64,000 nt of DNA, taken from NCBI GenBank assembly GCA_016720655.1, contig JADKKE010000010.1:69042-133041 (forward strand), read 5' to 3'. The translations under genes and the position numbers were made by a program. Numbering within the stretch: the first letter of the stretch is position 1; the number at the start of each line of letters is the position of its first letter. The notes beneath the pieces were generated by a model that ran no database searches, had not been told where the DNA came from, and was given only the letters and a program-made list of their open reading frames with translations. Shown one piece after another: positions 8,943 through 62,521 of this stretch. This stretch comes from Bacteroidota bacterium (lineage in GTDB: Bacteria; Bacteroidota; Bacteroidia; AKYH767-A; 2013-40CM-41-45).

Positions 8943-8944
8943 CC

Positions 8945-18500: not shown

Positions 18501-18501
18501 C

Positions 18502-42292: not shown

Positions 42293-42301
42293 GATAAAAA
42301 T

Positions 42302-42871
42302 ATGGAGGAACTATACAATTTTGTTTACCGCGGTCTGCTCACAGATGAGAGTTTAGATAAGGCTAGGTAGAAAGAACCTTTCAAAGTTTGGAAAGAAGAA
42401 GAACACTCTCTTATGAAGGCTCTATCATTTGAGATGCTCGATGACGACAACATTCAAAAAGCAAGACAAATGTCTATTGTTTATATAGCATTACATTCTT
42501 TTGAAAATTCAGTCCGGAATTAGTTAAGTCTGCAATGGCAGAGAAGTTTCTTGAGACTTGGTGGGAAAAAAAGTTCCTGAGAGAATTAAATCGAAGGTAA
42601 AACAAGACAGGAAGAAGATTCAAAATTCAGGTGGCATGGGAGCAGAGGAACTGAAGAAATAATGTACTGCGATTTCGGAGATTTATCCTCTATCATAGTT
42701 GTAAATTGGGATCTATTTAAAGATATTTTGGCAGACATGGAGTGGACAAAGGCTGTTCTTTCAACTTTAGAAAGATCTCGTAATATAATTATGCATGGCG
42801 GAATTGTAACCCGAGAGGACATGGAAAGAATAGGAATAAATATTAGAGCTTGGGTAAGACAAACGGGATAA
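42302..42871 (+). pseudogene. Swt1-like HEPN domain gene (predicted RNase), broken by three or more frameshifts/stops
   Basis: The reconstructed sequence reads ..LHSFENSVRN / LVKSAMAEKFLETWWEKK / VPERIKSKVKQDRKK... / YCDFGDLSSIIVVNWDLFKDIL...LERSRNIIMHGG. It has the R-x4-H HEPN motif and FGDL..II..NW..F typical of the Swt1-like HEPN family. Confidence 0.55.
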
Positions 42872-43045
42872 AAGCAAGCGAATAACAGCACATTTGCAAT
42901 AGTCTGGCATTCATGCACTGCTGACTATTTGTGGTTTTAAAAAGGTCAGTGCTCCGCATGAACATTTGTGATAAAAAGCCTGCCCATCGCAAATCTGCAA
43001 CCCGTTGGCTCAGTACGAACTAACTACAATACTTAAATTATCCTT

Positions 43046-43264
43046 ATGAATAGCAAACGAAAAGCAGAAATCAGAGATGCTATACTTCAGAAATTCATCG
43101 GAAATCAAACATTTGAGTGGAAAGACATTAAAGAAGGAGAATGGTACTCAAACATCGACGAGAGTTATTACGTTATTGAAAATCAAATTAAACATTTAAT
43201 CGGTCAAGAGCATCTAAAAATGAGGAGCACCCAATTGGTGAACACCATTATTTTAGAGGAATAA
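43046..43264 (+). CDS. Hypothetical small protein
   Basis: ORF only. It lies in the AT-rich island. Confidence 0.3.
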   Translation: MNSKRKAEIRDAILQKFIGNQTFEWKDIKEGEWYSNIDESYYVIENQIKHLIGQEHLKMRSTQLVNTIILEE

Positions 43265-43363
43265 ATTTAACAGAAAAGGGTTGGAGCATTTTGTCTGACA
43301 TAAAAGAGTGAAGGGTATGTTGCACAACTTCGCAAAAGAAGGCGGAAAGTAATATGGTCTGTC

Positions 43364-43660
43364 GTGGTTGGTATTATTACCATACTTACATTTTTGTTGA
43401 TGATCCGGAGAGATTTCTTTGATAGTACATCAACATTAAAATCTGATCCAAAGCCAATTTCAACTCCTACGATCAAAACGGATAGTGTTAAGCCCGTCAC
43501 ATTAATTAATGGTAAAGAACAAACCAGCTTTACTCACCAAGATAGTATTGAATACCTTGCAATCGATGACTTATACTTTGGTAAAATGCAAACGGAGAAT
43601 AGTAGCTTTCTAGTATTGCTGGAATTACCTTGGCCAAATAGTAACTCACGGGAATTATAA
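43364..43660 (+). CDS. Hypothetical small membrane-anchored protein
   Basis: N-terminal TM segment (MVGIITILTFLLMI). Confidence 0.3.
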   Translation: MVGIITILTFLLMIRRDFFDSTSTLKSDPKPISTPTIKTDSVKPVTLINGKEQTSFTHQDSIEYLAIDDLYFGKMQTENSSFLVLLELPWPNSNSREL

Positions 43661-43703
43661 GTATTCTTTATCACATTGTTATGATATCGGCGATACTATT
43701 CAA

Positions 43704-43958
43704 ATGAATCTTAGCTATCAAGCTCCTCCTCTTGAACGCCTTATTAGTGTAATTTGTTCCGAATACGGAAAAACTTTGTCTATAAACAAAGCGACATATA
43801 AATGGGCTACGCCTTACAAGAAAATTAAGGTTGAGTTTCTTTCAAAGGACAAATGTATTACATTGGATATAATTAATAATAAATTAGAAAATGAGAATAG
43901 ACTAAAACAAGAAAAAGAAAATGCCCAAATGCTTAAAGACGATATTAAAAAACTTTAG
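43704..43958 (+). CDS. Hypothetical small protein
   Basis: ORF only. Confidence 0.3.
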   Translation: MNLSYQAPPLERLISVICSEYGKTLSINKATYKWATPYKKIKVEFLSKDKCITLDIINNKLENENRLKQEKENAQMLKDDIKKL

Positions 43959-44222
43959 CAGGACCTGGTTGTATTTGATGCCGGAATGCGCATAACATAA
44001 AGATTAAACGCAATATTTTTGGAGTGGGCGGGCTCGCGTAAGCTAGCGCAGGCGTCCGTGATGCTTCGCACTAGTTTACGTCCGCCCTATCCACACTTTG
44101 TAAACTATTCGGTACATTTGAGTGTGTAGTGACTGATCTCCCAAAAATACTCCGTTAATCTATTCTACGTTTGCGCAACTTCTTCGCGACTTAAGAAATT
44201 TCAACATTATTGATAGAACCAA

Positions 44223-45157
44223 ATGAGTCTAGTCGTTTGCAAAGTTATTAACGATAAAATATACATTGAATCAGATTCAAGAATCACGGATATTGATGAG
44301 GGTAGGAAAAAGGAATCAATTTATGGGGTCCTTAAAGCTATCATTGTCCATCCACGAATATGTATTTCATTTGCTGGATCGATTTACTTGGCAGAAAAAG
44401 CTGTAAGAGAAATTTATAATCAAAAAAGTGTATCGTCACAATATTTGATAGACACCTTACTAAAATACAACTCTGATGGAAATAGAGTTGTATTTACTTT
44501 GTGTACATTAAGAAATAATAAACCGAAATTACAAAAATCGCAAATAATAATGTTGAAACCGGTTTGACTTCTGCTTGGATTGGTGACATCGATGGATTTA
44601 GTGAATTCCAAAAACAATTTCATGAACTTATAAGAAAGAAACAACCAGAAAAAGAATCTTTGACGCAGGCCTTTTCAAGAGTAATTGAAAATCCCAATAT
44701 TCCTACCATTGCAGATTTTCAAGTGAGCACGATTACAGAAACAGGTCCATATGGCGACCGCTTCTTTCGTTACTTTGAGAAATTTACTTTAACCCTTGGC
44801 AGATCACAGACGATAACACTAAAACCTCATGAGAATTCTTCATCGAACGAGAATCATTCCATTGCTAATTCCCATATAATCAACTGGGGATCTGCGGCAG
44901 ATGGCTCATACGGAGTCTGCTATTTCGTTTCAGTTACGCCAGTCATTAATGCTATTGCGTATTACTTTGCACATGGAAATTTTGGAGTTTTATTCTGCCC
45001 TAAATTGAGTTTTGAAGGAATAGTGATCAGGAACATGGACAACATCAAGTTTTTAGAATTTATAAAATCGAAATATAACATTCCTCTAAGAGGATTCATG
45101 TTACGAGATAATTCCGCAGTTCAACTTATAGATATGCGGTTTCCCGCCAAAACTTAG
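44223..45157 (+). CDS. Hypothetical protein(s): two ORFs overlapping by 4 bp at 44564, possibly a single gene of about 310 aa with a frameshift, or a coupled pair
   Basis: ORFs 44223..44567 and 44564..45157 (the latter with a TTG start). No recognisable domain. Confidence 0.35.
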
Positions 45158-45185
45158 TCCATAAAACACTGTCGAATTTGCCTTG

Positions 45186-45420
45186 TTTGCCGCAGTGGAA
45201 GGAGGATATATCTTATGCTAGCTCGGAGCTGCTATTATTTCCCAAATTTATCTATACCCGCCACGCCGGATATGTCCCCAGTTAAAAGTTAACAGCTGTG
45301 AAGGATAAGACCCCAGTTAAAAGTTCGCACCCGCTGCGCAGGATATGACTCCAGTTAAAAGTTCAAAGCTGAGAAGGATGCTAACGCTGCGAAGGATCTC
45401 CAAGCCAAAACTTTTACCTC
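45186..45420. repeat. Island repeat array A: 5-6 tandem degenerate units (gctgYgMaggatatgaccccagttaaaagtt..., about 18-38 bp)
   Basis: Read directly. It ends with the variant gctgcgaaggatctccaagcc. Confidence 0.85.
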
Positions 45421-46446
45421 CACTCGTTTGTCATAATTCGAAAATGTTATGCAGCCAAAGACTGAGATCAACCTTATTTAGTACCAGTTTTACTCAACTG
45501 TAATAGCTGATATCTTAAAGCTGTTGATGGTGGATCCTCGGTGGACATTCATCTTGACCTTTTGTTGTACAGACTATTTAGGAAACCCATTAACAATCAA
45601 TGGAATCAAAATAAAAAATGGGAAAAATGAGTATAAGAAGTTCGTTAGCACCTATCTGACTAAAGTCAACAATAACTACAGGGACTTCATAACCAACTAT
45701 ATGCTATCCGGTGCTCGTTAGTGCATACATATGGTGAGTCTGATGCATCACGGCAAAACAGATTACACCACAACTTATATTTGGGGATCCTATAAGTTAT
45801 CATTTAAGTTTTGATATAAGAGATATCAATCTGGACATTAGCCTTTCGGACTTTATCAGTGAATTAATAGCAGCTATTCATTTGTTTTTTATGAGATTTT
45901 CTGCTATAAATTCAGACTGGTCGCTAAAATTATATTATCCTCAAAACCTAAAAGTATAATTGGAAAGACAATCAATTAAACTAGGAAATCCTATAATTTA
46001 CAAATCAATTCATCCATCTCTGGAAATTCTTGACAAAGATAATGACATAAGTCTTATTTGTAAGTTCATTAAAAATGAAATTGAAGAAGAAATCTATAGA
46101 CATTAAAAATATAAAAGATATCTTGTTACGCAAATTTCGCAACAACAGTGAACGATTGACTCTTGTCATCGTAGAAATAATGAAATCTCAAATCAACCCT
46201 GTGATTTATCAAAACATGAAATCAAAGTTGTAGAAAGTATTAAAAACTAAATTATCAAGTATCAAATGGACATAATTAACCCATACGAGAAAATTTATTT
46301 CGCAAAGTCCATCCTAAAAGGGATAATGTTTTATTATGAACAACTAGATAAAATTAATAAGTCAATTACATTGAAAAGAATTTTCCAATCAAAAGAAAAG
46401 ATGTCCAGTAGCAATTAATTTTCTTAATGCAATTCCTGAAGATGAC

Positions 46447-47313
46447 ATGCTCAACAATTTTTCTCAAAGTCATCCGCAATTGCAATCAGCAATGGAACGG
46501 ATTGATTTTTATTCAAACCTAAGTGTTGCTGAATTATCATATAATGAAATGCATATCATAATATATCTTGACCATTTACTTTTCAGTGCAATAAACATTA
46601 TGTTTTTTAAAGTAAAAATAGAAATTCCAAAAGCCATAAAAGATTTGTCAATAGATGAGAAGATAAAATATTTGATTGAAAATAAATACTACTACCTCCA
46701 AAATGAAAGCCCTTTCGCACGATGTTCATTTCCGCAAGCAGTAGCCTATTGTGATTCAGAAATTGAAAAGTTCAAAGAACTTCGTGCATCAGATTGAAAT
46801 AAATCCGATTACGGCAGAGATAAATAAAATGGTAGAACAATATCTATTTTTGGTTCAAGATAACATACAGGGCAATCAACTTATTTCACCACTTATTGAA
46901 CAAAAGTTTCCAGAGTTTATTGCAAAACTCAAACGAATGCTCTTGGATTCCTAGTTTCTTTGATATTACAGAAGCAGATAAAGAAAGAACATTTCATGTT
47001 TTTGTTCTTGGTGTTTTGCAGGGGAGAATTGAAGGTTACAATATTTCTTCAAATAAGGAATCAGGAGTTGGGCGATACGACATTGCCCTCACTCCAATTG
47101 AATTGAAGAATCCGAGTATTAATTGAAATAAAGAAAAGAGAAAAAGACAAAGCAAATATTGAAAACGAATTGGATGAAGCACTCAATCAGATTGAAAAAA
47201 AACTATATTTTACTGAAATGAGAAATATAGGCGTGCAAACGATTTTAAATGTTGCAATAGTGTTTGAGGGTCTAGAGCCGCATATCAAGTATAATAAATT
47301 TATTCATCACTAA
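46447..47313 (+). pseudogene. C-terminal part of a gene of the AAA-ATPase-like/PD-(D/E)XK (DUF1703-type) family, frameshifted, with the N-terminal ATPase region missing
   Basis: Three overlapping ORFs plus an extension. The motifs are ..FHVFVLGVLQGRIEGYNISSNKESGVGRYDIALTP and, after a frameshift, LIEIKKREKDKAN...LDEALNQIEKKLY, which together give GR.DI...IE.K. Confidence 0.5.
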
Positions 47314-47329
47314 GTAAAAAAGAAATTTC

Positions 47330-47425
47330 TCCAGCTGCGCAGAATATGTCTCGCTCTGCAGGATATGTCCATCTAAAAGCTCACCACTGCGAAGGATGCA
47401 AACCGCTGCGAAGGATATGACCTAT
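47330..47425. repeat. Island repeat array B (4 units, gctgcgcagaatatg.. / ctgcgaaggatgcaaac / cgctgcgaaggatatgacc)
   Basis: Read directly. Confidence 0.85.
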
Positions 47426-47452
47426 TCTGAACAGAATGATGTGTGAAAGCCG

Positions 47453-48061
47453 GTGTGTGAGATCATCCCGAACAAAATAATTATGAAAGAAATAAGTGAC
47501 TATAAACTGATAAGAGATGTTATAGTCATGCAACTTCAGAATTGGATGAAGGAACAAGGAGTTCATTCAAAAACTGAAATTGTTAAACTAATAAGACACA
47601 GATTTGAAAACAGGTATTTAAAACATATAAAATCTGTTGACAGCGGCTTTTTAATCATGGCTGTCTCCTGTTTCGTCATAGAGACATTGCAATCATTTAG
47701 GGAAGGTGTACCTGACACTAATGGAATGGGACCGAGAATGTTTAAGAACTTTTTCAATAATGAACAAGACAATTTCCCTGACTTTAATGAAGGAATATCG
47801 GTTGAATTTTATAAACACATAAGATGCGGAATTCTGCATCAATCAGAAACGACAAATGGCTGGAGAGTGCTTAGAAAAGGCAAACTACTTGACGAAACAG
47901 AATTTTCACTTAACGCAGAACTGTTTCTTGAATCGCTTAACAAAAGCGTGAATAAATATTTAAACGAGTTAGCTAATTCAGACTTCAATTCTAACCTATG
48001 GAAAAATGCATTTATCAAGTTGAAAGATATTTGCGAAAATTGTCACAGAAAAACTGTATGA
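47453..48061 (+). CDS. Hypothetical protein of 202 aa with a possible HEPN-like R-x4-H motif (RCGILH)
   Basis: Clean ORF between two repeat arrays. The motif match is weak. Confidence 0.35.
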   Translation: MCEIIPNKIIMKEISDYKLIRDVIVMQLQNWMKEQGVHSKTEIVKLIRHRFENRYLKHIKSVDSGFLIMAVSCFVIETLQSFREGVPDTNGMGPRMFKNFFNNEQDNFPDFNEGISVEFYKHIRCGILHQSETTNGWRVLRKGKLLDETEFSLNAELFLESLNKSVNKYLNELANSDFNSNLWKNAFIKLKDICENCHRKTV

Positions 48062-48089
48062 TACGAAATGACGATAGCAAGGAGCTGTT

Positions 48090-48205
48090 ATACTTACAGC
48101 TGCAGGAAGGATCTCATGATCCCCACCATCGCTGCGAAGGATCTCCAAGATCCTTTGCTCTTAAATTGTGTGATATTCATCCACTGATCAATGCTTTTCA
48201 GATCT
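48090..48205. repeat. Island repeat array C (2 units) ending in the terminal variant cgctgcgaaggatctccaagatcctttgctcttaaattgtgtgatattca
   Basis: The tail shares about 50 bp with array G at 56700..56745 and contains the palindrome aaggatc-tccaa-gatcctt. Confidence 0.85.
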
Positions 48206-48229
48206 GCTAATGCGTACCGGTTTTTAAAA

Positions 48230-48450
48230 GGGTGAATTACCACGGTGTGCTGTATGTTGTGTGAAAACCCGTGCACAAGGTTATTCCGCCTCTGGAGGCC
48301 GGTAGCTCCCTTTCATGACATCACCTTCAGGTATACTTGGTTCAAAGTGGCTTCGCAAATGGTGGCAATCCATCTCCTCAAGACATCAGATTATCGGTAT
48401 TAATATTTTCCGGGGGAGTTTCATATTTACTTGTTAGCGGCAATTTAGAA
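48230..48450 (+). repeat. Conserved element of about 200 bp, copy 1 (ttgtgtg...cgtgcacaaggttattccgcctctggaggccggtagctccc..tcatgacatcac..tcaggta..ttgg.tcaaagtggcttcg.aaatgg.ggca)
   Basis: About 85% identical to 55570..55790 on the same strand, and it contains a cctc(c/t)ggagg palindrome. It lies upstream of the Abi-alpha-like gene. Confidence 0.75.
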
Positions 48451-48478
48451 AGACACACACAATTTAACGAGATACAAA

Positions 48479-49276
48479 ATGAGCGAACAAAACAAAGAAC
48501 CAAGCGAAAACAAAGTAAGTGAAACAATCAATGCTGTTACAGGGCTTGTGAAAACAGTTCCGGTCTATACTGATACAATTCAACCTGCAGCCAAAGAAAT
48601 TGGAAAGACTCTTGAGACAGTAGCAAAAACAGTTAATGTAGCACTCTTTCCTTTAAAAGCATTAGTTTGGAGTTTTGAAAAACTTCAAATTTTTATTGAC
48701 ACGAAAGTATCTGAAAAATTAAAGAACACTCCTGAAAGTGAAATTAAAACTCCAAATCAAAATATGGTAGTTCCATTTGTGATTATCATGTCTGGTGATG
48801 AACCTGAACTGCAAGAACTCTTCGCGAATTTAATTGCATCTTCAATGGACAATCACACTTCTAATTTTGTTCATCCTAGTTTTGTGGAAACCATAAAACA
48901 ATTAACACCAGATGAAGCAAAAATATTAAGATACATTTCTAAAGAGGCAAATCTTCCTACCACCATTGCAATTCGGAGTGAATCAAGTAATCTGCAAGAA
49001 GGTGGTTGGGATATGTATAGACACGTTTCTCTTTTCGGTGAAAAAGCATTTTGTGTAAACCCTCATTTAACTTCTGTGGCACTTGACAACTTTATAAGAC
49101 TTGGTATTATTGAAATACGTAAAGATTATTCTTATACAGAAAAGAAAATATACTCGGAACTAATGGACGACAAAGAAGTGAAGGAGGTCATAGAAAATAT
49201 TAACAAAACCGAAGGCAGAAAAGTTAGAATCGTTGAAGAAATGGTTATCATTACTGACTTCGGCGCCAATTCATAA
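48479..49276 (+). CDS. Abi-alpha-like (DUF4393) abortive-infection family protein
   Basis: 265 aa. VPFVIIMSGDEPELQELFANLIASSMD...HPSFVETIKQLTPDEAKILRYI resembles the Abi-alpha family as I recall it. It sits in a defence-type island. Confidence 0.45.
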   Translation: MSEQNKEPSENKVSETINAVTGLVKTVPVYTDTIQPAAKEIGKTLETVAKTVNVALFPLKALVWSFEKLQIFIDTKVSEKLKNTPESEIKTPNQNMVVPFVIIMSGDEPELQELFANLIASSMDNHTSNFVHPSFVETIKQLTPDEAKILRYISKEANLPTTIAIRSESSNLQEGGWDMYRHVSLFGEKAFCVNPHLTSVALDNFIRLGIIEIRKDYSYTEKKIYSELMDDKEVKEVIENINKTEGRKVRIVEEMVIITDFGANS

Positions 49277-49309
49277 ACATTTGCGTAACAGACCACATTG
49301 AATACAGAA

Positions 49310-49440
49310 AATAACTGCAGCTAACATCCCCGCTGCGAAGGATAACCTGCCCGTTAAAGTATGCAACCCGCTGCGCAGGATATTACCTCTGTTAAAAGTT
49401 TCCAGCTGCAAGATATGTAATAGCTCGGGGGAAAGTTCTT
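49310..49440. repeat. Island repeat array D (3 units)
   Basis: cgctgcgaaggataacctgcccgttaaagtatgcaac / ccgctgcgcaggatattacctctgttaaaagtttcca / gctgcaagatatg. Confidence 0.85.
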
Positions 49441-50034
49441 GAATTGCCTGTGCGCAAGCTGATCCAACAGCGGAGGTAGGTGGCGATATTAGTATGCAAG
49501 CAAAGGTAATGGCGGAATAAGCAAATACACAATACCGCCCACAACATTTCCAAGCAATGGTTACTGCTTTGTGGCAGATAAGCAATTCGATAGTTTTTAA
49601 TTGTTTTACTAATAATCGACAACAAAAAAGAACAGGAGAAATTATTGTTTAATGCGTATTCAGAACATACCAAAAGTCCTTCTATGGCTTAAAAGGTTAT
49701 GTTTACAGAGTACCTCCACTACTTTTGAATAATGATGGATTAAGAAATTACTTTGTTAGTTGTAATCAAGCTCATGATATCCTAAAGTACTTTGCTTTTT
49801 CGATTGCTTTTCAAGTATTAATCACACTGATTAACAAAATGTTAACTGGATTAATTACAGTGCAGCTTACAAGAATGCTGAAGAAAGAAAGATTTGGGAA
49901 AAGGATGCCGACACCATATCAACTTGGTCTTTAATCGATTTTGTAGTTGAGCATCCTGGCACTTTACTATTTGGTATATCGACATGTATTGTTCGATGTT
50001 TACTTTCCGAAGGCACTGCCACTGTTTTAATACA

Positions 50035-50115
50035 ATTTAAGAAAGTTGAACCCCTGCTACGCAGGATATGACCCCGCTAAAAGTTCAGGCTGCAAAGGAT
50101 CTCATGATCCTTTTC
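50035..50115. repeat. Island repeat array E (2 units, the second being the ggatctcatgatcc variant)
   Basis: Read directly. Confidence 0.8.
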
Positions 50116-50604
50116 CATTCGGTGGTGTGATTTACAATCTACAGTTCTGGGCTTATAAAAGCACTTTTGGTGTCCAATAGTTCAGAAAATCAGGTGTGTT
50201 TACGGTCCTTATCGGAGGAATAAGGCAATCTACTTCGAACAGGGCTTCTTTATCATAGTAATTCCCGGGCGGAGCTGAGTGAACAGCGGCGGAGATGGGA
50301 AATGTGCTTCACTAGAACGGATAAAAGCATGATGCTATGAATATTAGATTTCATGTTTTTCGGTAGGGTGGAAGGTTTTATTGATTAGCTGGAATGGAAT
50401 CAAAATAGTGTCTCCTTACGTTATATTTGATTCAAAGAGAAGCGTTGGCAGGAATATTCTGGCTAATGCAGGCATATACTATCGAAGATCTTATATTATT
50501 GCAATCTGCATTTGTACTCAAAAGAAAATTCTAAGGCGTTCACACTTGCGATATTTTTTTCAGTTTGATTCTACACCACAAATGAAACATCTGGCCTATT
50601 AGGA

Positions 50605-51650
50605 TTGCTTCTTTGTTTCGCTCTTCAGACAAGCGCGCAAATTTTCAGTAAAGAATTTGGCGATATTAATGATACGGTTCAGATATCGGACATCCTTATT
50701 ACAAAAGATTCAAACATTGCCGTCTTTGCACGTTGCGCCCGAAATCCACTTGATGAACTTCTGTTCATCAAATTGGACACTCTGGGGGATACCTTAATGA
50801 CAAAACGATATTCAAATGCTAACAACTTGTTATTGTTTCTGTGGAGCAATCGAAATTTAGACAGTTCATTTTATGTAGTGATGACCAAAACAGATTCTGC
50901 GTTCCCATCGAATCTTGATAAAACGGTCAAATTATATGCCGAAGAGTGTTTATTTTCTGACTGACACAGTAATGGAATTTATGGAAACTCAAATTGGTGA
51001 TCGAGATTCACTTTTGTTCTTTGCAGGAGTGCATATAAAAGTTATTTGTTGAAGATGGACATTCAGGGAAACATTGTCAAGGAGATATTCTTTGGCAGTG
51101 ATGCGTTACACAGTTCCTATAACAGTCCTGAAATAGTGAATTTTATTGTTGATAGAAATCACAATATCATTTGTACGGGAATGGAGGGGGAAGTACATAT
51201 CCCGGAACATTGTTGCAAAGCACCTTCTCGTTAAATTAAATTCAAATGGCGATATTTCGTGGACTTTCTGCAATGCTCTCGCATACGAAGTTTATAACAG
51301 AAGTGGAAGAAAGTTCAGCTGGAGAATATTGGATAATTTCTAAATATTGGTGGATGGGGTCGGAAAGTGCTTCTATAAATATTGTAGATACGAATGGTAC
51401 ATATCTCTGCAGCATATACGGCCCTGGTGATGTCGCGACTACCCACTCCGCTTATTCATTGGCCGACAGCAATCTTGTTTTTACCGGTCGTGTCAATGGT
51501 AACCGGGCTTTCAGAATGGAAGTGAATTCTTCCCGGACGATCATCAATTATAAAATAGGGAATGCGCAGATCGCAACAGAAGCCGTCTTAAACGGAGATC
51601 GAGCAATTTTTGGATCATCGCATACACTCGCTATGGTTGATACACATTAA
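50605..51650 (+). pseudogene. Beta-propeller repeat protein gene, fragmented over four overlapping ORFs
   Basis: A repeated motif of about 50 aa (..DTLGDTLMTKRY.., ..DIQGNIVKEIFFGS.., ..LNSNGDISWTF..) is shared with the minus-strand pseudogenes at 52.4-55.4 kb. A signal-like N-terminus (MLLCFALQTSAQ) is present. Confidence 0.4.
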
Positions 51651-52139
51651 GAGCAATTGCTTCCTGAAGATTCAATAGTCTTAAACCCGACTGTCAACCC
51701 CGGATCTGGGCCGATAATTCGTATTTGGAAATTGTACGGGGACAAATCCAGTTTTTATCAACAAGCACGCCATGGAATTGTTCATCCGGAATCACTATGG
51801 ACAATGGCTGTATTTCTTTAGAACAGAGCAGTTGGAGATGAAGGAGTATTTACTTTTTCCAAATCCCGCAACTGGCAGTTAAATTTCAACAGGAAAACCT
51901 CGCCTTCGGAGCTGTTTTACCTTGTACGACGCACATTCAAATTTGATGGTCAAAGTTTCGAATCCAACCACAAAAAACAATAATATTATTCAACGCCGAT
52001 TATTTTTCATCCGGAATGTATTTTGCCAATTTTGTCACGAGTGTGGAAGCTTGTATTCCGGAAAAGTCATCTTATACATTGAATTAAAGGAAATTTGAGG
52101 CAATACCCGCTCCGCAGATGTGTCTATCTTTTTTTAACC

Positions 52140-52260
52140 ACAGAGGGTCCATGAGATTGTAGATTGTAGAATGCTGATTGTAGATTGTAGATTGTAGATT
52201 GCTGATTGGTGATTTTAAATTGCTGATTGTAGATTTAAGAACTTCTCTGTGCTGCTCGGT
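52140..52260. repeat. Tandem repeat of approximately gattgtagatt / gattgctgatt units, about 9 copies
   Basis: Read directly. It is C-poor on the plus strand. Confidence 0.85.
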
Positions 52261-52403
52261 GTTTAAAAATGCATCCATTTAAAATTAAGCACTTTTAAAA
52301 AAAAATCAAGTCATTCAACATCACTAGGGATGCAGATTCATCAATGGTGTTGATTGAGTTAAGGAAATTTCTACAATCGAAATTAAATAAATGCTTCAGC
52401 CCA

Positions 52404-53758
52404 CTATTCAATCAAGTTTTCTACTCCCATTACCTTCGTTTCCAGAATTGATTTCAAAATGTAAAGTCCTGCTTCCAAATCTCCTTTTTCGATTCTGGTC
52501 CAATGTATTCTCAACTCTTAACATTTTTCTCCTCACCCTTCCTGTCGTGTCATAAAGTGTCAATGAACATTTTAGATTGTTTGGATTTGGGAATAATATC
52601 AGTTACCTTCACCATCTGTTTTAACAAGATAAATATCTTTGACTCCAATAGTTGATGCACCTAAAAAATCAGTATAACCACCAACCAAATATCCTCCGTC
52701 ACTATTTTGAATTACCTGTTGTGCGGCTTCACCACGTGGACTATCCAAAGCTCCAATAATTCTTGACCACAAAACATTTCCCTGTTCATCTGTTTTAAGA
52801 AGGTACATACTCATCGAATCAATAAAATCTTCCTGGGCACCACCTGTAATAATGAATCCACTATCCAAACATTGTTTTATGTATATATCAAACGGCATAT
52901 ACCCACCCGTAGAATCAGAAATTACTTTGTTCCAAAGGACATCCATATTATTATTCAACTTAGTCAAAATAATTTTATATCGTGATGTCCTGCTATAACT
53001 AACACCGGCAACAATTAACCCAGAATCAACTGTATTTGAAACGGATTGAGCAAACATCCTTTCGGAACCACTTAACTGAATAGTTTTATTTTGAAGTAAA
53101 TTTCCATATGAGTCCATCTGTAAACATAAAGTCCGCGTAGAATCCAATGTTCCCCATTCTTCTCACTGTAAAAAGTTCCCCATTTGTTGTTTGAAGAGTT
53201 TGGGATGTTACAACTTTATTGGTCTGATATTTTCTTTGACCATACAATATTTCCGGCGGTATCCATTTCAATAAAAAAGAAGCCATTGGATGTTTGTAAA
53301 TCACCGCTCAGAATAAATGATCCATTGTTCTTTTGAAAAATGGTCCGCGAAGTTAAGCCAATTGGGTCTTGTATTGTCCTTGGTCCAAAGTGTATCACCC
53401 ATATTGTTTGTTCTAATCAACAAAATTTCATTCAATACGCCACAAGTATCACCTGCAATCAGGTAACCTCCATCATTTGTTTGAATCAGTGATTTTCCAA
53501 AGGAATAAGAGTTCATCAAATATGTTTTATTCCAAATAATATTTCCATTTAGATCCATTTTGCATAATAACACACGTGTTGAATCTAATTCATCCATAAA
53601 CCCGGTAAAGGCATAATTACTGTCATTTGTCAAAATTAAATCTAACACAGATTCATAAGATGGACTACCTACAACTCTTTGCCAGAGTTAGTTGAGCGTG
53701 GGCAGTAGTTAAACATTAAACAGCTCCAAAACAATGCAATTTTTAGAATATTCTTCAT
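52404..53758 (-). pseudogene. T9SS cargo gene with beta-propeller repeats and a type-A sorting domain remnant, frameshifted at five or more sites including within the signal peptide
   Basis: Four overlapping minus-strand ORFs (motifs NGNIIWNKTY, GGYLIAGDT, DTLWTKD). The signal peptide is MKNILKIALFWSCLMF. The C-terminus gives ..FPNPNN..SLTLYDTTGRV...AGLYILK..VMGVENLIE when frames are joined. Confidence 0.45.
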
Positions 53759-53954
53759 GGGTCATTGGTTTGTAAATTCAATTAATTGAAAATTGATAGA
53801 TATAAAAACCAGATTCATCTGGAAAATATTTAAAATACTATGACAGCAACTTGATATATTGCTAAATTACAAAATTCTGGTTGTCCTGTTCTTATTTTTG
53901 GTTCCAGCTATTTTTTTTGTAATAATACATCAAAAACTATTTTTATTGCGTCAT

Positions 53955-54015
53955 CTATGTGTAAAGAAATCCCGTTGCGCAAGATATGACCCGCTGCGCA
54001 GGATACAATCGTCCT
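53955..54015. repeat. Island repeat array F (2 units: cccgttgcgcaagatatgacc / cgctgcgcaggatacaatcg)
   Basis: Read directly. Confidence 0.75.
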
Positions 54016-54071
54016 TTATTTTATTGTCGAAAAGGAAAGGGTAGATTGAAGTGTGTCGCGGCGAATTAATT

Positions 54072-55440
54072 TCAATTCATTACTACCAATCGATATATAT
54101 ATTTGGTGGAAGCAAGATTAAAGGAAATTAGATACGTTCCTGCCTGCAGTGAAGTTGGGAGTTCAATAAAAGGAGTAGCTTCCGAATGAATCACCATTGT
54201 AGGAATAATTAGTTTTCCTTGCAAATCATGAAGAGTTACAGATGTAATTTTCTCAGCAGGAATTGAAAAATTGAATCTGCTTCCTGAGCAGACCGGATTC
54301 GGATAAATTTTACTCTTTACAAACGCATCTTCACTGATACCGGCTAAAAGCAGATCTGAAATTCGAATCAGATAGCCTTCAGATCCCGAACCGACCCAAG
54401 CTTTTCCTGCTATATACAATTTATCATTCAGAATTAATGTTTCAGTTGCCTCTAAGGCTGATATACCCAAAGAATAATCTGCCAAGAGGCTGCCCAAAAG
54501 TATCACTCCATATAACTGTGCCTAAACGACCTATCGCGAGATAATTCCTGCATAATTAAGTTGATTTTGACCATTCGAGAACGACGATTGAGGTTCTGCC
54601 CAAATTAAGGAACCGGTTGTATCCACCTTTATCAAAGTTGAGATATTATTAAGTCCCAACAAATAACCATATGGTAATTTACAAATTTCATCCACTTCCG
54701 AATACCACGAACCAATATTATATGTTTGTTGCCATAAAATTAATCCTGTTGTATCAATACAAGTAGTTGGGGTTTTCGATTAGCAAAACAGTATCCGATG
54801 ACATTCCTCCAATAAGAATATTGCCATGGCGATGTTATGATTCCTCCATGATATTGAGTCGGAAATAAATCCGGAAGCCAGTTAATTTGCAATACATTTC
54901 CATCAGTCAGTCTTGATAATAATACAAAGTCATATCCATTTGCAGAACAATAAACATGACCAATAAGGTAGAGGTTGGAATGAATTTCAACGAGTCCGGA
55001 AGGACTAAAAACTGTATCTACCTGTGGTACATATGGAAATTTTGAAATAAAAAATTACCGGTTGAAGTATAAAACATCAGTGAAGGACAATAACTGGAGC
55101 CATACGAAGTTCGAAAAATTAACCATTAAATAATTTCCATTGGACAGCTCCTTGATTATTTGCCCTTCACCAACACTACCTGTTGTATCATCACGTATAA
55201 TCGTTACAATATTCCCGTCCAGGTCTGCTTTAATAGCGAAATATTCGTCAGGACCATTAAGGTACCATGCAGTGCCTGTTAAGAGCAACAAGCTGTCACT
55301 GGTAAGCTCCATATCATTGATGGTTGCATAATGCCGATTCAGAGCGGAAGAATATCCATAGGCAAAATCAACCTGCTGTGAAAATGAAATTTGAAGATCA
55401 AGCAGCATCAGCAAAAGAACGAGAGAAAATAATTTTTCAT
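54072..55440 (-). pseudogene. T9SS cargo gene with an intact type-A sorting domain, frameshifted upstream including in the signal peptide
   Basis: The C-terminal sorting domain reads IYPNPVCSGSRFNFSIPAEKITSVTLHDLQGKLI...AGTYLISFNLASTKYIYRLVVMN. The start MKNYFLSFF.. is out of frame with the 55055..55414 ORF. Confidence 0.5.
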
Positions 55441-55569
55441 GAGTAAACCGGTTGTATTTCTAAAGGGAACAATGAACCCAACCGTTACTGTTGAATGATG
55501 GCCTGTATGTGAGCTCATTCAGAATTGGCAGGGAATCGCTATAAATATAATAAAAAAAACCTTCTGAGC

Positions 55570-55790
55570 GGAATGTTGTGTGCTGGCACGTGCGCACGGT
55601 TATTCCGCCTCCGGAGGTCGATAGCTCCCCTATCATGACATCACTTCAGGTAGATTTGGATCAAAAGTGGCTTCGTAAATGGCGGCACTTCACCTCCTCG
55701 AAACAGCTGTTTTTGGTTTTAAGGATTTTCAGGGAGTTTTGTATATTTACTAGTACTGTGCCACTTTAACGCACCGCTTGAACTAACTGC
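55570..55790 (+). repeat. Conserved element of about 200 bp, copy 2
   Basis: About 85% identity to 48230..48450, with the palindrome cctccggagg. Confidence 0.75.
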
Positions 55791-56114
55791 TATCATATGT
55801 CCAGGTACATTCTCTCTATCCTTTTCTATTTTATCCTAAATTTTTTAGTTTGCTCAAACTCCCGATTCAATTTATTATTTAAGTGCAAAGAATAATATAA
55901 ATGCGGTCATTTCACCACTTCAATTTAAAACTTTTCATAAAGAAACTAAAAAGCATTTAAGACTTTTCCATTATATGATAATTCCAACTGGGATTCTCTC
56001 AATAAAGCTCAGGCCCCTTTTCGACTAAAAGTCAGAACAAATGGACTCAATTTTTTAAATACTCTACGATTTGAATACCCTGCTTCATTTGCCGATTCGG
56101 ATTCCTGTTTAATC

Positions 56115-56501
56115 TTGATGGACTTAAATAAAACCAAACTTTGTCTTTATCTTGAAGAAAATCAAGGTATGCAAGCATACCATCTGGCTGACTATCTGAA
56201 ACCATATATGCTATTTCAACGCTCTGGTTGGGAATGGCAAGAATTTATTTTATATAATCCATCCAATAGATACCTTGTTTCGTTTCCGGATTCACCTGTC
56301 TTTTTAAATGATTCCTTAATTTATGCTCTAGGCAATTATTATGGTGAAGGCGGATTTCAATTTATAAATGTGAACAACAATTCCTTCTTCAGAGTTGATT
56401 TTTCAAATTATGAAATACTTGAATGTTACCAAAGGGAATTTTTCTTTTACTTTACATTATATAATCGAGATTTAAACTCTAATAAATTTATTACAAATTA
56501 A
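56115..56501 (+). CDS. Hypothetical protein of 128 aa
   Basis: ORF downstream of copy 2 of the 200 bp element. Tyr/Asn-rich, no recognised domain. Confidence 0.3.
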   Translation: MMDLNKTKLCLYLEENQGMQAYHLADYLKPYMLFQRSGWEWQEFILYNPSNRYLVSFPDSPVFLNDSLIYALGNYYGEGGFQFINVNNNSFFRVDFSNYEILECYQREFFFYFTLYNRDLNSNKFITN

Positions 56502-56544
56502 CATTCTTCTCCCAAAATTAAACTCCCTTTGAAAATACTCCTTA

Positions 56545-56750
56545 CGCTTTTATAGCAACCCGCTGGAGGGTATGACCCCAGTTAAAAGCTAAAAGCTGCG
56601 AAGGATTCCAAAGATCCGGCCCGCTGCGAAGGATATGACCCTAGTTAAAAGCTCACAGCTGCGAAGGATGCTATCGCTGCGAAGGATCTCCAAGATCCTT
56701 TGCCCTTAAACTGTGTGATATTCAATTGTCTGAACTGTGATTTCGATGAT
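56545..56750. repeat. Island repeat array G (5 units, ending with the long terminal variant)
   Basis: gctggagggtatgaccccagttaaaagctaaaa / gctgcgaaggattccaaagatccggcc / cgctgcgaaggatatgaccctagttaaaagctcaca / gctgcgaaggatgctat / cgctgcgaaggatctccaagatcctttgcccttaaactgtgtgatattca. Confidence 0.9.
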
Positions 56751-56981
56751 TTATATGATTTCACTGATGTGCATCCATACTATTAGCTGGGATTGAAATA
56801 ATTGATTCATGTTCATCATTCCTAAAGAAATTTATTCAACACTGATTTCTCAAAATCAAAATAATCAAAATAATCATCAAAATCATAGTTCAGACAAGGT
56901 GCAGTTCAGACAAAAGTGTTTCATTAAAATCCCCAGCATTTGTTGGTTGTATCCCAAAAATCAATGGTCGAGATTTGGTCC

Positions 56982-57377
56982 ATGATTAAGGAGAAATATA
57001 AACATTCAGATTTAACGGCAAAGATTATCGGATGCGCTTTGGAAGTTCACAAGACTTTGGGAAATGGATTTCAGGAGGTCATCTATCAACGTGCATTGCA
57101 AATTGAAATGGCACAACATGGCCTCGCTTTTCAACGTGAATTCGAAATGCCTGTTTTGTACAAAGGAGAACAAATCGGAACACGAAGGGTTGATTTTCTT
57201 GTGGAAGAAATTATTTCGGTTGAACTCAAAGCACTCACACAATTAGAGCCGGTGCATTTGGCACAAGCTATTAATTACCTCGAAGCATATAATTTGGAAA
57301 TCGGGTTGTTGTTGAATTTTGGTGCAACAAGTATGGAAATTAAAAGATTAACAAATGGGAAATTGCCGGCAATGTGA
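56982..57377 (+). CDS. GxxExxY family protein (PD-(D/E)XK-fold)
   Basis: MIKEKYKHSDLTAKIIGCALEVHKTLGNGFQEVIYQRAL..ELKAL..H.AQAINYLEAYNLEIGLLLNFG has the family motif order. It is flanked by atcaYagttcagacaaRg direct repeats at about 56885-56915 and 57458-57485. Confidence 0.75.
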   Translation: MIKEKYKHSDLTAKIIGCALEVHKTLGNGFQEVIYQRALQIEMAQHGLAFQREFEMPVLYKGEQIGTRRVDFLVEEIISVELKALTQLEPVHLAQAINYLEAYNLEIGLLLNFGATSMEIKRLTNGKLPAM

Positions 57378-57604
57378 AATCTGTCTTAAACGTTTTAATC
57401 TCGTGATTAATTTTAATCTCAGTTGAATCAAACAGCGGCATTCAGTGTAATCACAAAAATCAACATAATCACAGTTCAGACAAAGGAGAATTACGGTAAC
57501 ACATGTCGTCCCTACGGGACTTCACCCCTTGTGTGCGCTTTGCTACCGACATTTCGTCCCAAACGGGACTTACTTGTTGTTCAATAAAACCAAGAGATAC
57601 AACC

Positions 57605-57705
57605 GTATACAATAGAATAAAATCCCGCTGCGCAGGATATAACCCCACTTAAAAATTAATTGCTGCGTAAGATGACGGAAGTTCGGCATCTCCATGCGAA
57701 GGATT
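57605..57705. repeat. Island repeat array H (3 degenerate units), the rightmost array, adjacent to the two-component system
   Basis: cgctgcgcaggatataaccccacttaaaaattaatt / gctgcgtaagatgacgg.. / gcgaaggatttaccac. Confidence 0.75.
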
Positions 57706-57760
57706 TACCACACCGCACAAAAACACTTCGCTTGAAGTGTATTGGTAAGAAAAACATTCC

Positions 57761-58401
57761 TCAAACTATCTTCCCCTTAATCGCCTTCGCCACCGCTTCC
57801 GATTTTGAATGAACCTGCAACTTCTTGTAAATGTTTTTGATGTGACCGTTTACAGTTTCAGGGCTGATGAAACAGGATTCTGCAATTAATTTATAGCTCA
57901 TTCCCTGAACAAGATATTTCACAACTTCTTTCTCCCTGTCTGAAAGGTCAAAATCATTCACTGCTTCTGCTGAGGGTTTATGTTGTACCATCTTCAACAC
58001 TTTTCTGGCTATGCTTGGTGTCATCGGAGAACCGCCTTCATAAACTTCTTTAATCGCGGCAAGCATTTGAACGGGAGGAGTGCTTTTAGAATATAGCCTT
58101 CCGCCCCGTTGCAAATGGATTGAAATATTCTATCGTTGTCATCAAAAATGGTCTCCATCAGGATTTTCACATCCGGAAAATTTTCTTTCGCGATTTTCAC
58201 CGCTTCAATGCCGGATATACCGGGCATTTCAATATCCATAAGAATAACATCAGGGTTTGTTTGCCTGATGTCATTTACAATGTCAGTGCAGTTGGCAAAC
58301 GCTCCGGCACATTCAAATCCCGAACTGCCATTAATAAGCTGGAACAATCCTTCACGTAAACTACGATTATCTTCAAAAATAATTACTCTCAAAGTTTTCA
58401 T
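57761..58401 (-). CDS. NarL/LuxR-type response regulator (receiver domain + HTH), with an apparent frameshift near 58090-58115
   Basis: ORF 58021..58401 is the receiver domain (VIIFEDNRSLREG...ILMDIEMPGISGIEA) and ORF 57761..58114 is the LuxR HTH (LSDREKEVVKYLVQGMSYKLIAESCFISPETV). The two join sensibly as ..AEGYILK / STPPVQMLAAIKEVYEGG. Confidence 0.75.
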
Positions 58402-58528
58402 CTGGCTCTTTAATTTTTTGTTAAAATGGCTGGAAGGAATTATTCACCTGTTTTACTTTTTGTTAATTGTGTTCAAGAACTCCGTTTCGCCATATTCATT
58501 TTTTGGTAAACTTTTGTATAGCGCTATT

Positions 58529-60421
58529 TCATGCTTTAAAAATTAGTTCAAGGTTTGTGCCGCTTCCTTTTTCTGATTCAATTTTCAATTGCGCTTTCAT
58601 TTCTTCCGCGCGGTTTTTCATATTGAGCAAGCCGTTACCCTTTGATGTCTGAGCAACATCAAATCCGACTCCATTATCCCGGATTGCCAGTTTTATTAAT
58701 CCGTTTTCATTTGTCAGGGTGATGGATGCGCGTGTGGCTTGCGAATACTTTACAAGATTGTTGAGCGCTTCTTTAAAAATCAGGTAAAAATTTCTTCTCG
58801 ATTCCAGAGAAAGTTTTAACTCATTTAAATTTTCATCTGCCTGAAATGTGTGTTCAATATTTTTTGCCTTTAGCAAGTTGTACGCAAGCGTACCCATGCG
58901 TGAAATGATATTTTCAAATGTGTCATTCTTCGGATTAATCGTCCAGACAATATCACTCATCACTTCAATTATTTTTCTTGAAGCATCTCCAATCTGTTCC
59001 AGTTCATCAACCACAGCCGGAGATTTTTGTTTGGCCACTTCGCTGTAAACCGAAATACTGTTTAAGGTTGAGCCGACATCATCGTGAAGGTCGCTTGCAA
59101 TTCTGTTCCGGATGTTTTGCAGCTTCAATTTATTCGCTATCCTGAAATTGTTATAAACAAAAAATGAAAGGATCAACAACAAAGCGAGACCACCAATGAA
59201 ATAATTCTTTATCAGTTTTTGTTTTTTGATTTCTACATCTGCCACAGCCAGTTGTTTTTCGTTCTCGGCTTTTGTTGCGACTTCTTTTTTATCAAACTCG
59301 TAATTCATTTCCAATTGAGTTTGCTTTTTTACCTTCTCTTCGTTGTTGATGCTGTCCCTGGCAGCTATGTATTGTATATGATATTCATAAGCTTTTTTCC
59401 AGTCGCCCTTTTTAGAATAGAGTTCACTAAAATAATTATTATCATCTTTAATTAAATCCAACGCTTTAATTTCTGTTGCAAGTTTTAATGCACTGTCCAG
59501 ATATTTATCTGCTTCTGATAATTTATTTTGTTTAATATAAAGCGAGCCAATGTTGCCCAGAGTTGTTGCTATGCAGTATTTATCTTCTTGTTCTTGAGCT
59601 ATTTTCAATGTCCTGAAAGCATAGTCAAGAGCTTTTGGATAGTCGGCTTGCTCACCATAGACAATCCCGATGTTGCCGAGGATCATGGTAATATAATTTT
59701 TTGCTCCAAATTCTTCATCCATCTTCAGAGCCCTGAAATAATAGTCGAGTGCTTTGGGATAGTCGGCTTGTTTCATATAGATAACCCCGATGTTGCAAAG
59801 TGTGGAAGCAATTAAATTATTTAATCCCAATTCTTCTTTCATTTTCAGTGCCTTGAAATAATAGTCAAGGGATTTGGCATAGTCCCCTTGCACATCATAT
59901 ACAACCCCAATGTTGCCGAGAATTCCTGCGATTTTATTTTTATCCCCAATTTCTTCTGCAATTTTCAATGCCGTCAAATAATAGCTCACCGCTTTCGAAA
60001 AATCAGCTTGCATTTGATAAACGCTTCCGATGCGCCCAAGTGTTGTTGCTTTTCCTCTCTTGTCATTTAATTGGTCCCACAAGGCAATAGCTTTGTTGTA
60101 ATGTTCAAGAGCAAAACTGAATTCTCCTTTCAGAAAATTGAACCAACCCAATTGATTATATGAATTTGCAATGCCTTTTTTCCATTGATTTTTTTCTGCA
60201 AGCTGCAATGCTTGTGTGCTAAGCAAGATAGAAGTGTCGGGGTTGATGTTCATCAATTCCCAGCCGATCGCGTTGAGGTGATTTACTTTGTTCGTATCCT
60301 CCTTTGCCGTTTTCAAAACATTCAGCAGCGAATCAATCTTCTGTTGATTCTGCGCCTGAACAGAATTAAATAAAACTCCACACAGGAATAAAAGGGAAAT
60401 CAGACGGAGAAAATATTTCAT
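58529..60421 (-). CDS. Sensor histidine kinase with extracytoplasmic TPR repeats, one TM segment, and HisKA_3 + HATPase domains
   Basis: Signal peptide, about 7 TPR units (..AIALWDQLNDKRGKATTLGRIGSVY..), TM segment YFIGGLALLLILSFFVY, phosphoacceptor region ASDLHDDVGSTL, and ATPase motifs (DNGVGFD, GNGLLNM). Confidence 0.85.
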   Translation of the reverse strand: MKYFLRLISLLFLCGVLFNSVQAQNQQKIDSLLNVLKTAKEDTNKVNHLNAIGWELMNINPDTSILLSTQALQLAEKNQWKKGIANSYNQLGWFNFLKGEFSFALEHYNKAIALWDQLNDKRGKATTLGRIGSVYQMQADFSKAVSYYLTALKIAEEIGDKNKIAGILGNIGVVYDVQGDYAKSLDYYFKALKMKEELGLNNLIASTLCNIGVIYMKQADYPKALDYYFRALKMDEEFGAKNYITMILGNIGIVYGEQADYPKALDYAFRTLKIAQEQEDKYCIATTLGNIGSLYIKQNKLSEADKYLDSALKLATEIKALDLIKDDNNYFSELYSKKGDWKKAYEYHIQYIAARDSINNEEKVKKQTQLEMNYEFDKKEVATKAENEKQLAVADVEIKKQKLIKNYFIGGLALLLILSFFVYNNFRIANKLKLQNIRNRIASDLHDDVGSTLNSISVYSEVAKQKSPAVVDELEQIGDASRKIIEVMSDIVWTINPKNDTFENIISRMGTLAYNLLKAKNIEHTFQADENLNELKLSLESRRNFYLIFKEALNNLVKYSQATRASITLTNENGLIKLAIRDNGVGFDVAQTSKGNGLLNMKNRAEEMKAQLKIESEKGSGTNLELIFKA

Positions 60422-60658
60422 TTCTTATGCTTCAATTGATTGAGGACTTAAATTTTTGTAATAATAACACTGCAAATGTAAACTGTTCATAATTCCTCTG
60501 AAACCCCTTGAACATGGTGTTTTGTACTACTTGCATCAGCAAAACACCTTGTTTATGGTATTGCTCGGCTTTATTGATCGCTTCACCTTTGTCCACGTTC
60601 AAATAAACAATAATTTATTCTAACATCCAAAGCACTCGGGACTAAAAACCAAAACAAA

Positions 60659-61573
60659 ATGAAAAAACTACTACTAAAAATGTTTTACGCCTGCCTGTCG
60701 GTAGGCAAGGCTTTCCTCATCATGATGATGTTTTCTTTTACTGTTGCAAATGCACAGATTATTTACACAGATGTAAATCCGGATTCAACCTTTGTGTTTT
60801 ATACCCGACACCCTGGCAATGTCTATAAAAACTACAATCTTGATTTAAATAATGATGGGAATAATGATTACACTTTAACAGCTTCTGCCTCGTCAACTAA
60901 TACTAATCCATCGTATAATGGTAGGAGGATAATAGCCAGTCCATTAAATGGCAATGCTGTAAAAGATACTTTGGTTAATTCTGACACTGTTTCAATTCCT
61001 TTACAATTTAATGCCCTTATTGACATTAACCTGTCATTAAACCAATCCTGGCAAACATCGGGATGGAATATTTTGAAAGATACGACTTGGTATTCGTGGC
61101 CCGGATCGGGTGTATCGAGTTCTGGGTTATGGAATAATTTATCAGATTATTATTTAGGATTAAGACTATTACAATCAGGACAAACTTACTATGGTTGGGT
61201 AAGATTACGTGTTGATGTATCAGGTGGTCCTGATTCACTTATTATACAGGATTATGCTTACAATTCCATACCCAACCAACCCATCCTTGCCGGACAAACA
61301 ACTACCACAGGAATAAATGAAAATTCTTTTGCTTCATCAATAAATCTTTTTCCAAATCCTGCCAACAACCATGTCACCATCACCTTGGGTAGCAGCAACA
61401 AAAAAGTTGAAGTAACCATCGCTGACATTACCGGAAAAGTAATTTACTCAACAACGGAAAGTGAAACGCAAAAAATAGAAGTAAACACGAAAGATTTTGC
61501 AGAGGGAATTTATGTTGTACAAATTCAGTCAGCATATTTTATTGGAACGAAAAAACTTGTCGTGGAAAAATAA
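60659..61573 (+). CDS. T9SS cargo protein of 304 aa with a type-A sorting domain, function unknown
   Basis: Signal peptide present. The sorting domain ends ..INLFPNPANNHVTITLGSSNKKVEVTIADITGKVIY...GIYVVQIQSAYFIGTKKLVVEK. Confidence 0.7.
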   Translation: MKKLLLKMFYACLSVGKAFLIMMMFSFTVANAQIIYTDVNPDSTFVFYTRHPGNVYKNYNLDLNNDGNNDYTLTASASSTNTNPSYNGRRIIASPLNGNAVKDTLVNSDTVSIPLQFNALIDINLSLNQSWQTSGWNILKDTTWYSWPGSGVSSSGLWNNLSDYYLGLRLLQSGQTYYGWVRLRVDVSGGPDSLIIQDYAYNSIPNQPILAGQTTTTGINENSFASSINLFPNPANNHVTITLGSSNKKVEVTIADITGKVIYSTTESETQKIEVNTKDFAEGIYVVQIQSAYFIGTKKLVVEK

Positions 61574-61602
61574 ATTCAAGTCAAAATTTAAAATTTAACA
61601 AA

Positions 61603-62485: not shown

Positions 62486-62521
62486 ATTCAAGTCAAACTA
62501 TTAATAAAAAATCAAAATAAA

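Follow-up and report, generated by a model that had tools for sequence, protein, structure and literature searches.

Two copies of a non-coding element of about 190 nt were identified in a 64,000-nt stretch of DNA from a Bacteroidota bacterium (hereafter the window: contig JADKKE010000010.1 of assembly GCA_016720655.1, positions 69,042 to 133,041 of the forward strand), each copy lying just upstream of one of two unrelated genes: an Abi_alpha gene and a gene for a protein of 241 amino acids (aa) with no known family. An earlier note on this DNA had proposed such a non-coding repeat just 5' of two genes, and this core claim holds. At a probability of roughly one half, the element is a duplicated promoter or upstream regulatory region that acts as DNA, with the conserved sequence ending at the predicted start of transcription. 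The element is specific to its lineage, and by its sequence the pair belongs with a kind of repeat that is already known.

The repeat and its limits

In the window, copy A (48246..48434, + strand) and copy B (55565..55754, + strand) align by blastn in the same orientation with 77% identity across 191 columns (E 4e-37), and both are recovered by an nhmmer profile built on the two copies (E 6.8e-55 for copy A). When copy A is replaced by the version common to five independent contigs of the same species (copy A', contig L147, 853-1042), the identity with copy B rises to 80% over 190 nt, without a gap. The agreement between A' and B is uneven along the element, with 82% identity at positions 1-130, 62% at positions 131-162, and 89% at positions 163-190; within element positions 60-119, overlapping 20-nt windows hold 17-19 matches out of 20. 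Both limits of the homology are sharp, and identity is at background beyond either end.

Two motifs mark the interior of the element. The 20-mer GGTTATTCCGCCTCNGGAGG occurs within the window at 48279 and 55598 only, where the chance expectation is 0, and in a scan of the window the exact palindrome CCTC(T/C)GGAGG was confined to the interior of copies A and B. The 10-bp palindrome of copy B (CCTCCGGAGG, 55608..55617, + strand) has its counterpart in copy A as CCTCTGGAGG at 48289-48298 and is a candidate site for a dimeric regulator. The palindrome and shared string named in the earlier note were thus both recovered in the two copies and nowhere else in the window. Its description of two same-strand copies confined to two places was likewise borne out, with the correction that their identity is 77% (80% after correction) and not about 85%. 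A truncated third copy, which had been suspected at 47425-47450, was rejected because the similarity at ~47425-47470 is not significant (blastn E 0.4, nhmmer E 2.5), and neither sensitive blastn nor the nhmmer profile found a further copy in the window.

Same-species contigs and indel errors in the window

The Abi_alpha protein encoded in the window has the same sequence as MBL0257557.1, from a metagenome-assembled genome (MAG) of a Bacteroidetes/Bacteroidota bacterium, and contigs of the same species from other samples were reached through P0121, a second member of the Abi_alpha 90% cluster. Contig L147 corresponds to window positions 47401-59039 and contig L148 to 40902-50461; contigs L149-L152 and L161-L170 cover portions of the same region. 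Compared with five independent contigs, the window version of copy A carries indels at seven positions (48310, 48324, 48343, 48412-13, and two bases at 48422). Along the rest of L147 the differences from the window likewise consist almost entirely of short indels, several of which alter how long a homopolymer run is, and substitutions are near zero in the flanking coding stretches.

Across window positions 47401-59039, genes of the island that are fragmented in the window are whole on the same-species contigs (5-10 independent contigs). These include Abi_alpha at 279 aa (265 aa in the window), the 241-aa gene, a response regulator of 213 aa that is broken in the window (57761-58401), and three type IX-secreted proteins of 500, 528, and 483 aa (window ~50381-55414). 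The gene breaks in the window are probably assembly errors and not pseudogenes. The MBK- and MBL-series Bacteroidetes MAG proteins are presumably derived from long-read assemblies of activated sludge, an origin that would fit homopolymer errors. Because the window carries many homopolymer indels, arguments from reading frames or gene boundaries in this region cannot be trusted without confirmation from further assemblies of the species, a lesson that we consider to matter more than the element itself.

The same contigs show how little the region varies between samples. The 430 nt around copy B are identical across 10 contigs from different samples, and therefore offer no population variation usable for a covariation test; likewise, the window and L147 are set apart by little other than indels, which leaves a comparison between strains uninformative on constraint.

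Placement before two unrelated genes

Copy A ends 44 nt before the ATG of the Abi_alpha (DUF4393) gene at 48479..49276 (+ strand; Pfam E 1.1e-46), which is the PADLOC candidate defense gene PDC-S47 (E 3.2e-68). Many of the closest named homologs of this protein come from Vibrio species. Copy B precedes the gene for the 241-aa protein (55797..56501, + strand, frameshifted in the window; L147 8681-9406), which has a signal-peptide-like N-terminal segment. In the intact same-species contigs, copy B ends 42 nt before the ATG of this gene (L147 8681, equivalent to window 55797), and the distance from element to ATG is therefore practically equal at the two loci, the element spanning about -234 to -45 relative to the ATG. 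The statement that each copy sits immediately 5' of a gene was accurate for copy A; for copy B it had been tied to an open reading frame (ORF) at 56115-56501, which is the 3' part of the frameshifted 241-aa gene, and it holds once the real ATG at 55797 is used. Abi_alpha and the 241-aa protein are unrelated (BLASTP E 26).

Copy B is flanked by two divergent genes, the 241-aa gene on the + strand and the gene for the 483-aa secreted protein on the - strand, and occupies most of the region between them. The true start of the 483-aa protein is likely the methionine of MKKLFSLV.

Coding potential

The element is non-coding. After correction for indels, a single frame is open in both copies, over 55 aa in A' (L147 878-1045) and 81 aa in B (L147 8408-8653), and the two remaining forward frames are interrupted by stop codons whose positions are conserved. 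Among the 55 codons of the shared frame, 29 are identical, and of the 26 that changed 23 are nonsynonymous and only 3 synonymous, which gives a ratio of nonsynonymous to synonymous substitution rates (dN/dS, NG86) of 1.69; the differences are distributed over the three codon positions as 9:13:8. Amino-acid identity in the frame is 58%, near the 55% of codons that would be expected to stay unchanged under frame-blind substitution. An exhaustive HMMER search of 1.84 billion representative proteins for a homolog of the shared ORF returned only one spurious repetitive protein, gene callers had called this ORF on 0 contigs, and six-frame translations of the element gave no match in Pfam at E values up to 1, which rules out a pseudogene fragment in any frame.

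These results change the reasoning behind the earlier note while leaving its conclusion in place. It had argued for a non-coding function from short ORFs that overlap the two copies in different frames; because the indel-corrected copies are colinear with a common open frame, that argument is an artefact of the indels in the window. The decaying pseudogene with protein-level homologs, which the note had named as the alternative, found neither a homolog nor a Pfam match in any frame.

A predicted promoter at the 3' edge of the element

The block at the 3' edge of the element is the best conserved (ATTTTCNGGGAGTTTYGTATATTTACT, 89% identical), and it holds the octamer TATATTTA at -57 to -48 from the ATG. 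In A' and in copy B (55742..55749, + strand) this octamer agrees with 5 of the 6 specified bases of the Bacteroidetes -7 box TAnnTTTG, the last base being A and not G; in copy A of the window it reads CATATTTA at 48422-48429 after the indel errors. Since the -7 box of the phylum occupies -12 to -5 (PMC9723704), the predicted +1 falls on the last homologous base of the element (L147 1042 and 8638; window ~48434 and ~55754). The predicted 5' untranslated regions (UTRs) of 44 and 42 nt would lie inside the range of the phylum, with a median of 24-32 nt and a mean of 52-65 nt (PMC9723704). The end of the homology at the predicted start, combined with the equal spacing to the ATG and the lack of an RNA signal described below, favors a promoter/operator module at the DNA level. 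Additionally, the divergent orientation of the genes on either side of copy B means that the 241-aa gene must have its promoter in the region between them, and because that region is mostly filled by the element, the element either contains the promoter or is transcribed as a leader. Among the three roles that had been suggested for the element (a structured 5' leader or small RNA, a cassette promoter module, or a recombination site), the promoter module fits best.

The proposed arrangement would consist of a block of ~190 bp with operator-type upstream sites, such as CCTCYGGAGG, and a sigma-A-type -7 box, TATATTTA, at its 3' edge. The block would have been copied before two unrelated genes of the lineage, the candidate defense gene Abi_alpha/PDC-S47 and the gene for the presumably secreted 241-aa protein. 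Transcription would begin at about the last conserved base and give gene-specific 5' UTRs of ~42-44 nt, and both genes would come under one promoter together with whatever regulator binds upstream, for which CCTCYGGAGG and the other conserved blocks are candidate sites. If correct, this would be one more case of promoter reuse, in which a candidate anti-phage gene and a secreted protein are co-regulated through one control region; it would be useful for annotating the island and would introduce no new principle.

Several points weigh against a promoter at this position. The -7 box is degenerate (5/6) and is accompanied by no clear -33 TTTG at the proper spacing, and such a box would turn up by chance roughly once in every few hundred AT-rich bases, the octamer TATATTTA itself being uncommon in the window (3 occurrences). 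With two paralogous copies and no between-strain variation, selection on the sequence is not demonstrable. Furthermore, a better internal match, the perfect TAnnTTTG of copy B (TAGATTTG, 55651..55658, + strand; TATACTTG at 48332-48339 in A), is an alternative -7-like box; if this is the one used, the 3' half of the element would become a leader of ~135 nt. A scan for sigma-70-type promoters and terminators gave no excess over shuffles.

On either side of copy B the octamer TATATTTA points outward (55542-55549 on the - strand and 55742-55749 on the + strand), toward the two divergent genes, an arrangement consistent with divergent -7 boxes that bracket a shared regulatory region. A sigma-54 promoter was also considered because an NtrC-type activator is encoded at 109-1284; by inspection, TGGCACG is present in copy B only and no TTGC follows it, and this candidate was rejected.

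RNA-level function

Instead, transcription of the whole element, or of its 3' half beginning at the internal TAGATTTG/TATACTTG box, might yield a long 5' leader or a small RNA with a regulatory effect on the gene that follows. At copy B the promoter could sit within the 47-125 nt that precede the element, in which case the element itself would be a leader, and the perfect TAnnTTTG inside copy B would also be in keeping with a start within it. A long-range helix is possible as well, CG(G/A)UAGCUCCC pairing with GGGAGUUU(C/U)G, whose two variable positions stay paired through changes from G-C to G-U and from G-U to A-U. However, comparison with the 4227 models of Rfam 15 gave 0 matches at the gathering score in the whole window and, at E values up to 5 across 47000-57000, no match that overlapped either copy.

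The folding results point the same way. The predicted fold of A' is less stable than those of its shuffles (z +2.15, with 197 of 200 shuffles at least as stable), that of B is close to them (z -0.54), and the putative leaders from the internal start have z values of +1.78 and +0.55; the minimum-free-energy structures of the two copies are not alike. In the RNAalifold consensus of A' and B only 1 of 37 pairs shows a two-sided change (U-G to G-U), a weak test with 2-3 distinct sequences, and the few pairs on the minus strand that seem compensatory are located in the non-homologous flanks. No intrinsic terminator was found in the terminator scan. The structured leader or small RNA offered by the earlier note, for which an Rfam scan and a search for compensatory changes had been proposed as checks, accordingly drew no support from either, and an RNA-level function is considered unlikely, a promoter region acting as DNA being preferred.

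Distribution and origin

The element was not found outside its species. The 20-mer core, searched in one genome per species across 185,579 species, gave 3 hits in unrelated phyla that matched the seed only, about the number expected by chance. The second conserved block gave 27 hits in the JGI metagenomes, the only true copy being on a contig of the same species (L019, 98.6% identical to the window); a seemingly extended match on another contig (L015) lies inside a GC-rich ORF for a membrane protein and was discarded as chance. Searches of viral contigs with three patterns (including the motif of the neighboring arrays), of plasmid records with A', and of phage records with B returned nothing relevant. 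The check for additional copies, also proposed earlier, thus ended with none in the window or in the collections beyond the species.

The element is also absent upstream of homologs of both downstream genes, those of Abi_alpha with 67-76% identity (L142-L145) and those of the 241-aa protein with 72-77% identity (L153-L160). Since homologs elsewhere lack it, the element was not inherited with either gene; by its sequence distribution it is a lineage-specific element placed before two unrelated genes.

The same distribution could be produced by a passive relic, in which an old segmental duplication or recombination within the island left two copies that have no function beyond incidental promoter activity. 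There are only two copies, they are 20% diverged, none was found outside the species, and the island is full of other repeats and scars of rearrangement. Yet the sharp ends and the equal distance to the ATG at both loci are not what a relic would predict, nor is the uneven divergence, the middle block having kept 62% identity and its neighbors 82-89%. It is also precisely here that the 241-aa gene requires a promoter. A relic is therefore judged improbable, slightly more so than action as RNA.

Inverted repeats, mobility, and recombination

A perfect 12-nt inverted repeat surrounds copy A only, with its left arm TTAAATTGTGTG at 48161..48172 (+ strand) and its right arm CACACAATTTAA at 48456-48467 (p ~0.007 in 1000 first-order Markov shuffles); the right arm lies 11 nt before the Abi_alpha ATG. 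This layout is typical of an inverton, and it raises the possibility that the element is a mobile or invertible module, either the payload of an element bounded by inverted repeats or part of a 284-bp TTAAATTGTGTG-CACACAATTTAA segment that flips to switch Abi_alpha. The left arm, moreover, belongs to a 52-nt repeat that also abuts a PDDEXK_3 gene flanked by inverted repeats. Against such a module, no equivalent inverted repeat was found at copy B, and the boundaries of the homology carry neither terminal inverted repeats nor target duplications. Orientation and arrangement are the same in all six independent assemblies of locus A and in all ten of locus B, and no recombinase was found among the Pfam-scanned ORFs or the Pfam-listed ORFs of the related contigs, ORFs without a Pfam hit being not judgeable in this respect. 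A mobile or invertible module thus seems quite improbable. About as improbable is the more specific idea that the element is the cargo of a small undescribed module bounded by inverted repeats, invertible or mobile, that supplies genes of the defense/cassette island with a promoter or a lineage-specific regulatory RNA, with copy A as the intact unit between TTAAATTGTGTG and CACACAATTTAA. The recombination site that had been listed among the candidate roles finds no support, with no terminal inverted repeats at the limits of homology and the 12-nt repeat at copy A only.

The 52-nt repeat is a direct repeat (96% identical, 48128-48179 and 56673-56724) made up of the final part of a GCTGCGAAGGAT array together with CTTAAAYTGTGTGATATTCA; at one locus it stands ahead of copy A and at the other ahead of the PDDEXK_3 gene. 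That gene (GxxExxY-type, 56940-57377) is flanked by 53-nt inverted repeats that are 79% complementary (56715-56767 and 57442-57494), which gives it the look of a small transposon.

Least probable of the rivals is a small protein or leader peptide of 40-55 aa (MTSLQV.L.QKWLRKW...) in the shared frame, which is open in both A' and B with a conserved internal ATG, but in which the excess of nonsynonymous changes, the spread of the differences over codon positions (9:13:8), an amino-acid identity near the unconstrained value, and the lack of any true homolog or gene call all argue against translation.

Surroundings of the element

The low-GC region at 41-58 kb beside carB looks like a defense island. 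In addition to Abi_alpha, it carries DUF5343 and HEPN_Swt1 genes (window ~41650-42900; L148 756-1974) that correspond to PADLOC PDC-M34A/B (E 5e-73 and 7e-70). Between window positions 45295 and 57704 there are 22 copies of GCTGCG(A/C)AGGAT (GCTGCGMAGGAT arrays), all on the + strand, in short arrays that separate small genes (~45250-45404, 47326-47422, 48090-48160, 49332-49381, 50056-50100, 53974-54004, 56567-56694, and 57627-57704). The motif was not found within one mismatch elsewhere in the window, nor in the viral contigs, and several of the arrays end in a hairpin, GCGAAGGATC-TCCAA-GATCCTTTGC.

The arrays were considered as attC-like sites and rejected: they are direct repeats with no consistent hairpin on either strand, and 5 of 6 folds are no better than shuffles (one has z -2.5). 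The architecture is cassette-like. Only two of the gene units between arrays carry the element, which is thus not part of the array architecture.

Other repeats were noted further away. A segmental duplication of ~3 kb (6841-9885 and 16639-19442, 96-97% identical) includes PorP/SprF genes with identical Pfam scores and adjoins giant SprB-repeat proteins. Three tandem paralogous genes at 60653-63988 are ~84% identical over ~980 nt, with internal 150-nt tandem repeats at 62672-63721, and a short tandem array of GATTGTA/GATTGCT heptamers lies at 52155-52240.

Comparison with known systems

The element was compared with the known kinds that it resembles. Correia elements, ERIC, and REPIN are, like the element, short intergenic repeats able to supply promoters to their neighbors. 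What sets them apart is their terminal inverted repeats or palindromic structure, the duplication of their target sites, and copy numbers in the tens to hundreds; the element is present twice, is not bounded by terminal inverted repeats at the limits of homology, and forms no strong secondary structure. A miniature inverted-repeat transposable element or the end of an insertion sequence is likewise not indicated, as there is no inverted repeat between the 5' and 3' limits, only two copies exist, and no match was obtained in plasmids, phages, or representative genomes.

The invertons of Bacteroidetes share with copy A a promoter-sized segment directly 5' of a gene, a perfect inverted repeat, and a right arm near the ATG. 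Flanking repeats are expected at every member of an inverton family and here are present at copy A only; in addition, the repeat is short, no invertase was seen, and the assemblies contain no opposite orientation. Cis-regulatory leaders and small RNAs of Bacteroidetes (Rfam families such as Flavo-1) are similar to the element in being conserved, non-coding, and in the 5' intergenic region, but the element has no match in the Rfam models, no thermodynamic or covariation signal, and no terminator. The attC sites of integrons are imperfect palindromes at cassette ends that fold into a hairpin with R''/R' boxes; the element is not located at cassette ends and is not such a site.

The closest known kind is the putative mobile promoter (PMP) of Matus-Garcia, Nijveen & van Passel (NAR 2012). 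In the summary of that work given in PMC3575422, PMPs are defined as within-genome non-coding sequences with at least 80% identity over at least 50 nt, located roughly -150 to -50 upstream of non-paralogous genes; the same summary counts more than 4000 families, among which pairs predominate and Rfam matches are the exception, and for which no mechanism of mobilisation is known. The two copies studied here are 80% identical without a gap over 190 nt upstream of start codons, and the genes that follow are not paralogs (BLASTP E 26, with identity at background 3' of the element). Judged by its sequence and by the definition as summarised there, the pair is a putative mobile promoter, a known and common kind, sharing with other PMPs a pair of similar non-coding sequences within one genome, non-paralogous downstream genes, and no Rfam match. 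It differs from the PMP pairs so summarised, which average 92% identity, in being more diverged (80%), in its longer block (190 nt), and in its position in a defense/cassette-like island of an uncultured Bacteroidota. As in most PMPs of that summary, promoter activity in the element is putative.

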